This document shows, one piece after another, positions 52,452-56,545 of a stretch of DNA of 64,000 nt; position 1 is the first letter of the stretch, and each line of letters starts with the position of its first letter. The notes below the pieces were generated by a model that did no database searches, was not told the origin of the DNA, and worked only from the letters and a program-made list of their open reading frames with translations. The stretch comes from Candidatus Limnocylindrales bacterium (GTDB lineage Bacteria > Chloroflexota > Limnocylindria > Limnocylindrales > CSP1-4): assembly GCA_036392215.1 (NCBI GenBank), contig DASVYJ010000027.1, forward strand, positions 15,637-79,636, read 5' to 3'. The position numbers and the translations under genes were made by a program.

Positions 52452-55286
52452 ATGCCCGGACCGTTCACCCACATCTACGCCCAGCGCCAGGTGGCGGAGT
52501 TCCTGGCCACGGCGGCCGCCGACGGCGGCTCGACGGGCGACTTCATCCGGGCTCGCGACGGCAAGCTGCTCGGCGAGCAGGCCCTCGATCCCGGACGCCT
52601 GGCCGGCCTGGGACCGGCCGACTGCGGCGGCCTCATGCAGGCCTGGCCCAAGTTCGCCGCCCTCGGCGCCATCGGGCCCGACCTGTTCTTCTTCCTCCAG
52701 GACTACGCCCAGCCGGCCGTCCCCTGCGACGAGCTGATGCTGGCCATGAGCCTGCTCTACTGGCTCGACGACCAGGGCCGCCTCGACGACCCCTGGGACG
52801 GCCTGCTGGCGATCATCGGCGACATCACCGGAAACGCCTTCGTGGCCCTCCTGCGCTTCCTCATCAAGCTCGACAAGATCTGGCAGAAGTTCCTCGACGC
52901 GATCGACGACCTGGTCGGCCCGATCCTGGACGCGGCGGGGCAGGTCATCGACGACCTGACCGGCGGGCTCCTCGACGAGCTCGGCGACGCCTTCACCACC
53001 CTCAAGAACGACCTGCTCGCCTTCGCCGGCGAGGAGATCCTGTCCGAGGCGGACATCTTCAGCTGGTTCTCCCTGAAGATGCGGGCCGGCTACGACGAGC
53101 AGTCGTTCCTATGGAGCGACATGACCCACTACCGGCTGACGAGCCGGGTCCCGGGTCGGCTGCTCGAGCACGCCCGGGCGATGCGGGCGAGCGCCGACGC
53201 GACCGAGCGCGAGCACGGCGACCAGTTGGCGGCCTACGCCCTCGGCTGGATCTGCCACGTCGGGACGGACACGACCGCCCACTCGTTCGTGAACGAGCAG
53301 GCCGGGGGGCCGTTCCGGACCCACTGGCAGCGCCATCACCTGGTCGAGAACCATCTCGACGCATTCGATTACGAGGCGACCGGCAACGGCGCGCTGCCGG
53401 CCGACGACAAGGTCGGCTGGATCGACACCTACGAAGGGCTCGCCCACAGCGCCCTCTACTTCGCCGTCCAGATCCCCCAGGACATCGATTCGCTGCCGGC
53501 GGACCAGAAGGAGGGTGACTGGCGGCGACCGTTGCCCGACGCCGACACGCGGGCCGGCCGCAAGCAGCGGGCCGAGCTGCTGGACACCGACGGGGCGATC
53601 CCGGGCTGGATGGCGGACACCATCGCCCGGGTCCTCGTCGAGGTCTATGCCCGGCCCGAGGAGGGCGGGCTGGCGGACCCGGCCTACGTCGCGGAGCGCG
53701 GGCCGCATCCGCGGAACCTGCTCGGCAAGGCCTTCCAGGACGGGCTCGGTGACGGGACCACGTTGCTGGGCCACTGGCTGGACGTGCTCGGCGTCGGCGA
53801 CCCCGGCCTGGCGATGCACGACCTTCGCGAAGCGGTCGCGCCGACCCCGCCCGCCGACCTCGCGACCCCCGAAGGATTCCCCCTGCCGTGGGAGATCAAG
53901 GTCGCCTACCGCTTCCTGTTGAGCTGGTTCAAGCGCCAGTACAACACGGGACTGGACATGGACAAGCCCCACCGACCGACCGTCTTCGTGCCGCCGGCCG
54001 CCGACTTCGTCCCGACGCCGCCCGACTTCTCGGGCGTGGACCCCTCCGACCCGCCGCTCGAGCAGGCCTGCGAGGTCCTGGCGGCGCTCCTGGACTGGCT
54101 CTTCAAGTCGCTCGAGCAGGCCGGCCAGCTGGCCTACGACCTGGCCAAGTCGGCCGCCTCCGGGGCGACCTTGCCGGCGCGCGACGCGCTCTACTACGGG
54201 CTGATCCTGCCCGCCTGGCAGGTCTGCGAGAACATGCGCCAGGTCCTCGTCCACCTGGCCTACCTGATGCCGCAGTCGGAGTTGCGCTACGACGACGGGG
54301 AGCTCCGGCGGCCGAACGAGATCGACCACGAGCTGATCAGCCTCGGCCACACCGTGGACGGCGCCTTCGCCGCGGCCCTGGCCGCGGCCTTCGACGTGCT
54401 GGGCAATCTCGACCATGATCCCGCCCTGACCGCCGACACGATCCGCAACCCCAAGGGCGGCCCGAACCGCGCCTACCCCTGGCTGCCCGTCCGGCCGACC
54501 CGTCGGTCGGCGGGCCAGACGACGTCGGCCCCCGGCATCTTCGGGTCCGACGTCGTCGAGTTCCGCCGGCCATGGGGGTTCCCCGACCGGACCAACGACA
54601 CCGACCCGCAACAGGCCGGCAACACGGTCGAGACGCCCCAGACCGTCCCCGGGCCCTATCCGCGGGACGCCATGCCGACGCTCCTGCTGGCTCGCGACGG
54701 TCCGGCTGACAACCGGATGAGGTTCGACTACGAGACGGCCGGCTGCCCGGAGCAGACCGACGGCTACAACGAGGAGTTCATCGGCCGGGCGCCGTTCACC
54801 CACGGCTACCCGGTGCCCGACGGGACCGCGCCCGGCGACGTCTCGGGCACCAATCCGCTCGGCGACCCGGTCATCTTCTCGGCCTACCTGATCGGCCAGA
54901 TCGCGGCCAACCCCCGCTTCGACGCCGACTTCAACCTGGACGCGGACCGCGGCTTCGGGTATCTGGCCTGGGACTGGGTCCGCGACCCGAAGATGACCAC
55001 CGGCAACCAGCGGGGCCAGCCCTATCAGGTCCCGCTGACCTGGCCCGAGGGCACGGTCGGCCAGTGGCGATATCCCCCGGCGGCCCCGGCCGACCAGGAT
55101 CCGCCGCCGCTCTACGACCCGCCCCTCCAGCTCCACTACCTGGGCCGCGAGTGCGGCCCCACGTCCGACGGCGCCCAGACCCACGGGCCCCTCGACCGGG
55201 GCCGGGGAGCCGCGCCGACCCCCGGCGGCACAGCCCGCCGAGCCCCGCGGCCCGCGCGCGGCCGGTCGGGAGGAGGCCCGCGATGA
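52452..55286 (+). CDS. Large cytoplasmic protein (945 aa) with an N-terminal Zn-dependent phospholipase C / P1-nuclease-like domain and a long C-terminal region of unknown function
   Basis: The N-terminus MPGPFTHIYAQ... (the xTH start is typical of cytoplasmic Zn_dep_PLPC-fold proteins) ...LGWICHVGTDTTAHSFVNE resembles the HYLGDxxQPxH Zn site. No signal peptide. The 816-nt upstream part of the ORF is intergenic and was rejected. Confidence 0.65.
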   Translation: MPGPFTHIYAQRQVAEFLATAAADGGSTGDFIRARDGKLLGEQALDPGRLAGLGPADCGGLMQAWPKFAALGAIGPDLFFFLQDYAQPAVPCDELMLAMSLLYWLDDQGRLDDPWDGLLAIIGDITGNAFVALLRFLIKLDKIWQKFLDAIDDLVGPILDAAGQVIDDLTGGLLDELGDAFTTLKNDLLAFAGEEILSEADIFSWFSLKMRAGYDEQSFLWSDMTHYRLTSRVPGRLLEHARAMRASADATEREHGDQLAAYALGWICHVGTDTTAHSFVNEQAGGPFRTHWQRHHLVENHLDAFDYEATGNGALPADDKVGWIDTYEGLAHSALYFAVQIPQDIDSLPADQKEGDWRRPLPDADTRAGRKQRAELLDTDGAIPGWMADTIARVLVEVYARPEEGGLADPAYVAERGPHPRNLLGKAFQDGLGDGTTLLGHWLDVLGVGDPGLAMHDLREAVAPTPPADLATPEGFPLPWEIKVAYRFLLSWFKRQYNTGLDMDKPHRPTVFVPPAADFVPTPPDFSGVDPSDPPLEQACEVLAALLDWLFKSLEQAGQLAYDLAKSAASGATLPARDALYYGLILPAWQVCENMRQVLVHLAYLMPQSELRYDDGELRRPNEIDHELISLGHTVDGAFAAALAAAFDVLGNLDHDPALTADTIRNPKGGPNRAYPWLPVRPTRRSAGQTTSAPGIFGSDVVEFRRPWGFPDRTNDTDPQQAGNTVETPQTVPGPYPRDAMPTLLLARDGPADNRMRFDYETAGCPEQTDGYNEEFIGRAPFTHGYPVPDGTAPGDVSGTNPLGDPVIFSAYLIGQIAANPRFDADFNLDADRGFGYLAWDWVRDPKMTTGNQRGQPYQVPLTWPEGTVGQWRYPPAAPADQDPPPLYDPPLQLHYLGRECGPTSDGAQTHGPLDRGRGAAPTPGGTARRAPRPARGRSGGGPR

Positions 55287-56545
55287 GCGACGAGCGACAC
55301 GAGCACCACGAGCACGGGCACCACGAGCACGGGCACCACGAGCACCACGAGCACGACTGTCATGACGAGCATCACCACCACTGCCATGGCGGCGGCCAGG
55401 TCCCGCTTCCGGCGGCGACGCCGACCGGTCCGCCCGTCGTCAACGTGACCGTCAACTGCGGTTGCGACCGCTGCCAGCCCGGCGGCGGCACCCCGCCCGG
55501 CACCCCGCCCGGCACCCGACCGCCCCACCAGACCGGCACCAGCGACGGCAGCCTCGACGGCGGGATCACGGACATCGGCGGGATCATCGGCGTCGCGACC
55601 CGCCCGCCCGGGGTCTGGCCGGGACCCCGCGATCGGCTCTACCTGCCGTTCCTGCTCGTCCGGGCCGTGCCGGGCGACCTGGGGGCGCGGCCGATCGGAG
55701 GCGTCTTCTGGGAGAGCCCGGACATCCTGATCGAGGCCGGCGTCCCGCCCGGGCTCGCACCTGACGTGCCGACCGCACTCGGTGCCGTCGCGAAGGCCAA
55801 TCAGGACAACACCGTCTACGCCCACGTCTGGAACCTGGGCCAAGGGCCTTCGCCCGAGACGCTGGTCGAGTTCTACTGGTTCGACCCCTCCCTCGGCTTC
55901 GACGCGGCCCATGCCCACCTCATCGGCGCCACCTGGGTGGACCTCGGGCCGCGCGGGGGCGCCGGAAGTCACCAGCTGGTGATGTGCCCCGTCTCCTGGC
56001 GGGCTCAGTACCTGAACGGCGGCCACGAGTGCCTCATGGTCCGGGTCAGCCAGCCGGTCCTCGACCCGCTCTCGGTCCCCGGCTGGGATGCCTCCGCCAA
56101 CCGCCACATCGGCCAGCGCAACATCCACGTCATGAGCGCCGCCGAGGCGGCCGCCCGGCCGACGCTGCCGATCGCGGTCGGCCCACTCTTCGGTGGGATG
56201 GCCCAGGTCGCCGTCGCCCGGGTGTCGACGGGCACGATGCCATGGCTGCACCTGGTCACGGGCAGCCGAACGACCACCTTCGGGACCGGCTTCGCGGGTG
56301 GCGACGTGGGCCTCACCGCGCCGACGCCCGCCGGCTCGCCGCTGCCGAACCTCGGCGGGGTGCCGGACCCACGTGGCGTCGGACTGATCGGCGACGGTCA
56401 CATGGTCGCCGCGGACGGCCAGCAGGTCGGCTTCCATGCCACGGACGGGGATCCCGGGGCCGGCAAGGCGCACGTCTACCGCGTCACCGGGACCCAGAAC
56501 GGGGCCGTCTTCGGCGGCTACACCGTCGTCGTGCTGGGGAGCTGA
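55283..56545 (+). CDS. Hypothetical protein (420 aa) with a His-rich N-terminus (MSDERHEHHEHGHHEHGHHEHHEHDCHDEHHHHCHGG)
   Basis: GGGAGGAGG RBS. ATGA overlap with the upstream 945-aa gene. No P-loop, so it is not HypB. The remainder has no recognised domain. Confidence 0.6.
   Translation: MSDERHEHHEHGHHEHGHHEHHEHDCHDEHHHHCHGGGQVPLPAATPTGPPVVNVTVNCGCDRCQPGGGTPPGTPPGTRPPHQTGTSDGSLDGGITDIGGIIGVATRPPGVWPGPRDRLYLPFLLVRAVPGDLGARPIGGVFWESPDILIEAGVPPGLAPDVPTALGAVAKANQDNTVYAHVWNLGQGPSPETLVEFYWFDPSLGFDAAHAHLIGATWVDLGPRGGAGSHQLVMCPVSWRAQYLNGGHECLMVRVSQPVLDPLSVPGWDASANRHIGQRNIHVMSAAEAAARPTLPIAVGPLFGGMAQVAVARVSTGTMPWLHLVTGSRTTTFGTGFAGGDVGLTAPTPAGSPLPNLGGVPDPRGVGLIGDGHMVAADGQQVGFHATDGDPGAGKAHVYRVTGTQNGAVFGGYTVVVLGS

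Follow-up and report, generated by a model that had tools for sequence, protein, structure and literature searches.

What kind of system is encoded by a gene pair in which a very large protein with phospholipase-C-like motifs overlaps, at its stop codon, with a protein that begins with a run of histidine and glutamate residues? The pair lies in a 64,000-nucleotide stretch of a contig of Candidatus Limnocylindrales bacterium (DASVYJ010000027.1, positions 15,637 to 79,636; here called the window), which has a guanine-plus-cytosine (GC) content of ~73%. We refer to the upstream gene of the pair and its product as A, and to the downstream partner as B. An original prediction, made from the letters of the window, had described the pair as a hydrolase with a metallochaperone-like partner. 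We propose that A and B constitute a self-contained, horizontally mobile, cytoplasmic two-protein zinc enzyme, in which the N-terminal tail of B or a COG0523 GTPase would help to supply the metal and the B core would have a role of its own. We give this reading an even chance.

Gene A extends on the forward strand from an ATG at 52452 to a TGA that ends at 55286. Its 945 codons include the stop, so the protein (MPGPFTHIY...) is formed by 944 residues and not by the 945 that had been predicted. Gene B (55283–56545, forward strand) encodes a protein of 420 residues (MSDERHEHHEH...). Both predicted reading frames and their coupling are present: the ATG of B (55283–55285) overlaps the TGA of A (55284–55286) in a shared ATGA, and a Shine-Dalgarno-like sequence, GGGAGGAGG (55268–55276, forward strand), lies inside the 3′ end of A, 6 nucleotides before the start of B. 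The GC content at third codon positions (GC3) is 0.95 in A and 0.91 in B, which is the level of the neighbouring genes and typical of real genes in the window. Hydrophobic segments strong enough for a membrane span or a signal peptide are missing from both proteins (maximal Kyte-Doolittle values over 19 residues of 1.66 in A and 1.47 in B), in agreement with the earlier description of A as an oversized protein without a signal peptide. No P-loop was found in A or B; the predicted lack of a GTPase P-loop in B was reproduced by a negative scan for [AG]xxxxGK[ST].

The N-terminal part of A (residues 1–310; 52452–53381, forward strand) is a predicted phospholipase C (PLC)-like metal-binding domain. 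The protein matches the Pfam family of zinc-dependent phospholipases C, PF00882, with 31.8 bits at a cut-off of 26.8 (E 1.6e-7), and the match spans only positions 45–123 of the 167 positions of the profile. The homologs of A (575 sequence clusters, ~900 residues each) bear the same precomputed Pfam assignment. The N terminus had been likened to both zinc-dependent PLCs and P1 nucleases; the PLC half of this assignment stands, with a Pfam score above the cut-off and a conserved ligand pattern, and the identity with S1/P1 nucleases is not supported, as A has no match to PF02265 and matches only the PLC family. The AlphaFold2 model of A has a mean predicted local distance difference test score (pLDDT) of 84.3 and a predicted template modelling score of 0.87. 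The PLC-like domain is split by an insertion of ~125 residues (~residues 92–215), which is shaped as a helical hairpin and carries the invariant loop IDDLTGG.

The core ligand motifs of A, H269-VGT-D273-TTA-H277 and H291-WQR-H295-H296-LV-E299 (53256–53351, forward strand), include the HVGTDTTAH sequence noticed previously, which occupies residues 269–277. In hhalign alignments with canonical PLCs, residues H269, D273, H295, and E299 correspond to H118, D122, H142, and E146 of the Bacillus cereus enzyme, with weak statistics (E 0.26). Residue H277 is offset by two positions from H128 of B. cereus PLC, and the loop is shorter in A. Residues H7, D77, and H226 were matched to H14, D55, and H69 by order and invariance only. 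Eight of the nine PLC ligand positions have counterparts in A, arranged in the same order. The putative ligands H7, D77, H226, H269, D273, H277, H295, and E299 show full invariance or a conservation of at least 90% in the homologs, and within the clade of the window they are invariant down to 27% sequence identity. Invariance over such a wide divergence argues for selection on catalysis. The protein begins with MPGPFTH and not with the processed Trp1 of canonical PLCs; Met-Pro is conserved at this place in the homologs, and we speculate that it supplies an alternative N-terminal ligand.

The remainder of A has few points of reference. Foldseek of A against the PDB gave no match at E ≤ 0.001, PDB sequence searches with single sequences, family profiles, and the A domain from which the insertion had been deleted gave none, and a BLASTP comparison of the A domain with B. 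cereus PLC, for which a sequence 99% identical to a database protein was used, gave none either. About two-thirds of A (~600 residues) is without a solved structural relative, and NCBIfam has no model for A or B. The C-terminal extension of A (residues 906–944; 55167–55283, forward strand) is rich in arginine, glycine, and proline, is not conserved, and is missing in the homologs; its pLDDT is below 50, and its GC content at the three codon positions (0.87/0.85/0.82) is atypical. The extension carries the reading frame of A into the start codon of B. A is placed in the PLC superfamily, as a new large subfamily.

Protein B is composed of a histidine- and cysteine-rich N-terminal tail that is predicted to be disordered, a linear motif, and a β-sandwich core. 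By sequence it is a new family for which Pfam and NCBIfam have no model, with homologs in 908 sequence clusters; its superfamily comprises 981 clusters when grouped at 50% identity. No fused domains were found by Pfam in ten B relatives of exceptional length. The tail contains a His/Glu-rich tract (residues 4–35; 55292–55387, forward strand) with 18 histidines in 30 residues, a composition of the metal-binding type. The first 40 residues hold 18 histidines and 7 glutamates, or 62.5%, close to the 60% first estimated. The tail is the most His-rich among those of 107 homologs. A 15-nucleotide tandem repeat inside the tract, CACGGGCACCACGAG (3.2 copies, 55298–55345, 96% perfect), encodes HGHHE, and the extreme character of the tract is therefore in part the product of recent slippage expansion. 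The tract is followed by a VVNVTVN strand and the cysteine cluster C59-G-C61-DR-C64 (55433–55474, forward strand; family consensus TVNVNV-CC-P). Two to seven cysteines are present in every tail analysed. The tails vary in length and are hypervariable in sequence, and they keep their His/Cys-rich composition across clades; tails rich in His and/or Cys are found in all clades in which B pairs with a ligand-intact A of ~690–950 residues. Four B homologs (P0217, P0221, P0223, and P0224) carry two LysM repeats at the extreme N terminus and no signal peptide, and LysM, a peptidoglycan- or chitin-binding module, is odd on proteins presumed to be cytoplasmic.

Downstream of the tail, the invariant linear motif RPPHQTGTSDGS (RPxHxTGTSDGS; residues 79–90; 55517–55552, forward strand) lies in a region that is predicted to be disordered (pLDDT below 50), and R79 and H82 do not vary among 47 sequences. 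The predicted β-sandwich core spans residues 146–420 (~275 residues; 55718–56542, forward strand). The first domain of the core is CARDB-like (PF07705), with an E-value of 0.26 and a Pfam score below the threshold. Four residues (C235, H248, C250, and H275) and the motif DRHxxQRN hardly vary over the 981 clusters of the superfamily. The likeness of B to HypB or UreE that had been suggested holds for the His-rich tail and ends there, as B has no UreE or HypB domain and its conserved part is an unrelated β-sandwich.

The association of A with B was followed in 33 species-representative genome loci and in 78 metagenome loci, 55 of which are long enough to judge. In 28 of the 33 genome loci, A is immediately followed by B in the same orientation; the five exceptions are three contig ends and two loci with an aminotransferase gene in the place of B. 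The two genes are adjacent in 52 of the 55 judgeable metagenome loci, with B downstream in 49 and upstream and divergent in 3; the remaining 3 have no B in view. The adjacency noticed in the window thus recurs at nearly every homologous locus, fungi included. In ~13 of 28 bacterial loci, a candidate start of B that is preceded by a Shine-Dalgarno-like sequence shares bases with the stop codon of A (ATGA or GTGA type) or begins on its last base. The identities of the homologs to the A and B of the window co-vary across loci, with r = 0.98.

The gene pair occurs in Actinobacteria, Chloroflexi, Dormibacterota, Nitrospirae, Proteobacteria, Bacteroidota, and Ascomycota. Its carriers include many bacteria from soil and some fungi. 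The closest relatives of the pair in the window (~70% identity) belong to Chloroflexi and Dormibacterota, and the actinobacterial copies of Catenulispora, Cellulomonas, and Microbacterium are ~40% identical. In the ascomycetes Drechslerella dactyloides (locus L034, 5644–10718) and Trapelia coarctata (locus L035, 5751–10754), A and B are intronless and are positioned head to head, ~1 kb apart, from where they probably share a promoter. The fungal copies are 52–56% (A) and 57–72% (B) identical to the proteins of the window and are slightly richer in GC than the DNA on either side. Because A and B diverge together and their identities are spread across phyla, the module appears to move horizontally as one unit. 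No relative of the pair was found among the viral contigs of IMG/VR. The literature searched contains no description of the A or B family, and the database names of the proteins are 'zinc dependent phospholipase C family protein' and 'hypothetical protein'.

Clustering of the flanking open reading frames of 117 loci identified a single recurrent third gene, which encodes a COG0523/CobW GTPase. COG0523 proteins, such as ZigA, YeiR, and ZNG1, are zinc metallochaperones. The gene starts 0–33 nucleotides downstream of B on the same strand, and its product has a Walker A motif, a GCICCT motif, and a His-rich linker. It follows B in four lineages (loci L010 and L059; L109–111; L039–41; and a JGI contig with P0264). 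A-like proteins that lack the ligands, encoded on the Ralstonia solanacearum megaplasmid and in locus L038, pair with B proteins that lack the His/Cys tail. The B core is kept both where the tail is missing and where A has lost its ligands.

We hypothesize that A is the catalytic protein and that its residues ~1–310 form a tri-metal phosphodiesterase centre of the PLC type, set in a larger, otherwise unprecedented, and mostly helical protein. B would be co-produced with A, through the overlapping stop and start codons in bacteria and as a divergent neighbour in the two fungi, and would most likely bind to A. B may be organized in two layers. The first layer would be the conserved β-sandwich core with its own near-invariant Cys2His2-like residues, perhaps responsible for substrate or membrane binding, or for regulation. 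The second layer, the hypervariable His/Cys-rich tail, would capture or buffer zinc for the enzyme, and the RPxHxTGTSDGS motif may dock the tail onto A. The COG0523 GTPase encoded after B in other lineages would help in the metal supply, sometimes alongside the tail. The substrate is probably a phosphodiester, for example a phospholipid head group.

Several observations weigh against the two-protein zinc enzyme. The canonical N-terminal tryptophan ligand and secretion are both missing in A, and the fold statistics of the PLC domain are modest. In 8 of the 107 close homolog tails, no 30-residue window contains more than one histidine, and in the four LysM-bearing homologs the repeats replace the His-rich segment. 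No Zur-box-like site is present in the window. Loci L010 and L109 combine a tail with a COG0523 gene. A ligand-intact A is paired with a tail-less B, with no COG0523 gene in view, in Paenibacillus (L033), in Thermomicrobiales (L032), and in L042, and the tail is therefore not essential. The correlation of lost ligands with missing tails rests on two lineages only. The B core is more conserved than A in 22 of 23 loci and its motifs are kept where A is degenerate, and the central role may therefore belong to B, which would then be more than a helper. Furthermore, the formation of a complex by A and B, metal binding, and enzymatic activity are read from sequence.

The alternative closest to the original prediction, which we regard as unlikely, is that B is a dedicated metallochaperone of the HypB/UreE type, the sole job of which is to load zinc (or nickel or cobalt) into the tri-zinc hydrolase A. 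Such a role would fit the extreme His-rich N terminus, the cysteine cluster in all tails, the obligate adjacency, and the invariant ligands of A. The predicted metallochaperone-like pairing is in part supported by ligand conservation, by adjacency, and by the COG0523 gene that follows B; it fails on the B core, which is independent of both the tail and the ligands of A. A P-loop is missing from B, no metallochaperone family matches it, and its conserved part is a 275-residue β-sandwich that exceeds A in conservation and persists without the tail and beside a degenerate A. Where COG0523 is encoded, it comes on top of B and not in its stead. Because of this addition, and because the B core outlasts both the tail and the ligands of A, we conclude that B is not a HypB/UreE-like chaperone.

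It is also improbable that the pair is a conflict or cell-death module, with A as a latent membrane-attacking phospholipase and B as its inhibitor, sensor, or targeting subunit. The trigger of such a module, no less doubtful, would be stress, infection, or release on lysis. The pair is scattered patchily over phyla and kingdoms, at odds with taxonomy, an unrestrained cytoplasmic PLC would be dangerous, and LysM repeats are present on some B proteins. Some of the neighbouring genes also suggest conflict, namely those of a patatin together with a giant DUF6603 protein, of giant WD40 proteins, and of a T4 gp19-like tube protein; each of them is, however, limited to one lineage. PADLOC 2023 gives no match for A or B, the identity of 50–72% between bacteria and fungi is unlike that of fast-evolving conflict genes, and the pair is missing from viral contigs and has no secretion signal.

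A further possibility, to which we attach little probability, reverses the roles: B would be the principal protein, for example a β-sandwich metalloprotein or enzyme acting through its near-invariant cysteine and histidine residues, and A a large scaffold or accessory subunit with a dispensable PLC-like site. The higher conservation of the B core speaks for this arrangement, as does the retention of C235, H248, C250, H275, and DRHxxQRN in Ralstonia and L038, where A is ligand-less. The invariance of every putative ligand of A in the clade of the window speaks against it, and no catalytic fold was recognized in B. We retain the two-protein zinc enzyme, with A as its catalytic protein, as the preferred reading.

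The genes downstream of B on the same strand encode a SARP with a BTAD domain (probable start at 56694), a 127-residue protein (57605–57988, forward strand), a 404-residue protein without a Pfam match (58010–59224, forward strand), and an 820-residue fusion of a protein kinase and a LanC-like synthetase (59229–61691, forward strand), which has the architecture of class III/IV lanthipeptide synthetases. The SARP and LanC-like genes that had been noticed near the pair are thus in place. The tailoring or regulation of a SARP/class III-IV lanthipeptide cluster by A and B, suggested by their adjoining position on the same strand and by the lack of a terminator-like site between B and the SARP gene, is essentially refuted, as no homolog of the SARP, kinase-LanC, 404-residue, or 127-residue proteins occurs in the 33 genome and 78 metagenome loci, and neighbourhoods differ in every lineage. 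We therefore consider the link to ribosomally synthesized and post-translationally modified peptides (RiPPs) accidental; the pair does not head a RiPP-like block, as had been proposed, and a relation to the adjacent genes is essentially excluded. The 127-residue reading frame is a real gene, because its GC3 is 0.97. Its first 75 residues are Cys/Thr-rich, Pfam gives no match to it, and it may encode an unusually long precursor or an accessory protein of the lanthipeptide-like cluster. All PADLOC matches of the synthetase (PD-T4-6, mad6, and MkoA) fall in residues 112–422, as does its Pfam protein-kinase match (149–355).

Upstream of A, a divergent MerR gene (51570–52115, reverse strand) overlaps an MFS transporter gene (50104–51573), with which it forms a MerR-MFS operon. 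An imperfect, AT-richer palindrome, AACCTTGCCGTTTACGTAAAGGTT(ATGGTT), at 52131–52160 just upstream of the MerR gene looks like a MerR-type operator of this operon rather than of A. MerR was rejected as the regulator of A, since it is not conserved at other loci and has its own operon with the MFS gene. The MFS transporter was similarly rejected as a conserved neighbour; it is found in 5 loci, but its position and strand vary. Neither MerR and MFS nor the downstream genes of the window have homologs conserved near A and B at other loci.

The predicted sigma-70-like promoter corresponds to one candidate, TTGACG-17-TAGCAT (52284–52312, forward strand), located 140 nucleotides upstream of A and identified by a consensus match only. 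It is the only such site in 51900–57700, where 0.2 were expected from shuffled sequences. A 7-nucleotide tandem repeat, CCTGTCG (4.9 copies, 96% matches, 52234–52267), ends 17 nucleotides upstream of the -35-like TTGACG; its period of 7 differs from the 11-nucleotide spacing usual for SARP sites. An inverted repeat with 13-nucleotide arms (52398–52446), 92% complementary and with a 23-nucleotide loop, has the 3′ arm CAGCGGGGGGACC, which covers the purine-rich stretch directly before the ATG of A. The repeat could form a hairpin in the 5′ untranslated region that hides the ribosome-binding site of A. It matches no Rfam family, and no Rfam RNA element was found in 51500–58200.

The neighbourhoods of homologous pairs contain further genes of single lineages. 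In L039 (1637–11160), and also in L040 and L041, the operon of a metagenomic sister subfamily is composed of genes for an A-like protein (758 residues, ligands intact), a B-like protein without a His/Cys tail, and a COG0523 protein, joined by 4-nucleotide overlaps. The operon continues with genes for a patatin-like phospholipase (678 residues), a 277-residue protein, and a giant DUF6603 protein. A more remote form of the module is located on the megaplasmid of R. solanacearum OE1-1 (locus L036, 4885–10267; RSOE_01825-01810) and is represented by 113–114 Ralstonia records. It encodes an A-like protein (652 residues, zinc ligands replaced), a B-like protein (550 residues), a CFI-box-CTERM protein that bears the annotation 'peptidase', and a PAP2 phosphatase; the homologs in this well-studied plant pathogen are all annotated as hypothetical. 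The patatin and PAP2 neighbours, each confined to one lineage, hint at a link to lipids. In L010, a 329-residue reading frame after the COG0523 gene (6638–7627, forward strand) has no Pfam match and ends with GGLTIVCAVND, comparable to the C-terminal GGYTVVVLG of B, and may encode a divergent B-like paralog. In L047 of Chloroflexi, a gene of a T4 gp19-like contractile-tail tube protein (PF06841, E 1e-44; 8282–8965, reverse strand; also in L001, L049, and L050) converges on B and ends 28 nucleotides after it, which suggests that a contractile injection system or prophage tail cluster adjoins B in this lineage only.

The known zinc-dependent PLCs of the PF00882 family include PC-PLC of B. cereus, PlcB of Listeria, and the clostridial alpha-toxin, which A resembles in Pfam score and ligand order; the helical core superposes over 157–179 residues, with modest fold statistics. 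The canonical PLC has ~245 residues, against the 944 of A, which has no signal or propeptide and differs by the inserted ~125-residue hairpin and by the ~600 extra residues without a solved relative. Known members are secreted toxins, whereas A is predicted to be cytoplasmic; A also has a separately encoded partner. The alpha-toxin also joins a PLC domain to a β-sandwich module, but in a single chain, whereas A and B are two. The B tail is like those of UreE, HypB, and SlyD, which are variable in length, conserved in composition, and hypervariable in sequence; unlike UreE and HypB, B lacks GTPase motifs and the UreE or HypB domain. CARDB proteins, of which structures are available (3idu and 2l0d), are typically extracellular. 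B differs from them by a second domain and the motifs FWESPDI, NGGHEC, and NRHIGQRN. By analogy, the pair would follow the same operon logic as the α and β subunits of nitrile hydratase with their COG0523-type activator, and as tyrosinase with its caddie protein MelC1: a catalytic protein, an obligate partner, and an optional metallochaperone, translationally coupled. These systems have no sequence or fold relationship to A and B and use another metal and chemistry.

What is new here is the architecture of a putative PLC-superfamily enzyme and, with it, an obligate partner of a new family. More tentatively, A and B may represent an unrecognized class of intracellular two-protein tri-zinc phosphodiesterases, the non-catalytic subunit of which carries a metal-harvesting tail, and which moved intact, repeatedly between phyla and into ascomycetes. 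COG0523 would supplement the tail in some lineages of this class, and the strongly selected soil function might, equally tentatively, be phospholipid remodelling or regulated membrane lysis. For genome mining, A and B should not be counted in the neighbouring lanthipeptide cluster. The cultured carriers Arthrobacter livingstonensis, Catenulispora rubra DSM 44948, Microbacterium deminutum JCM 14901, and Fusarium mundagurra make the pair tractable. If our interpretation is true, a widespread 'hypothetical' gene pair becomes a defined target, and a superfamily known so far only from small secreted toxins would gain its first cytoplasmic member with several subunits. The pair would also provide a natural case in which metallation is aided by a His/Cys tail that is part of the system, by a COG0523 chaperone, or by both, and a clear example of a two-gene unit that passed between bacteria and fungi and had its genes reordered to suit expression in eukaryotes.

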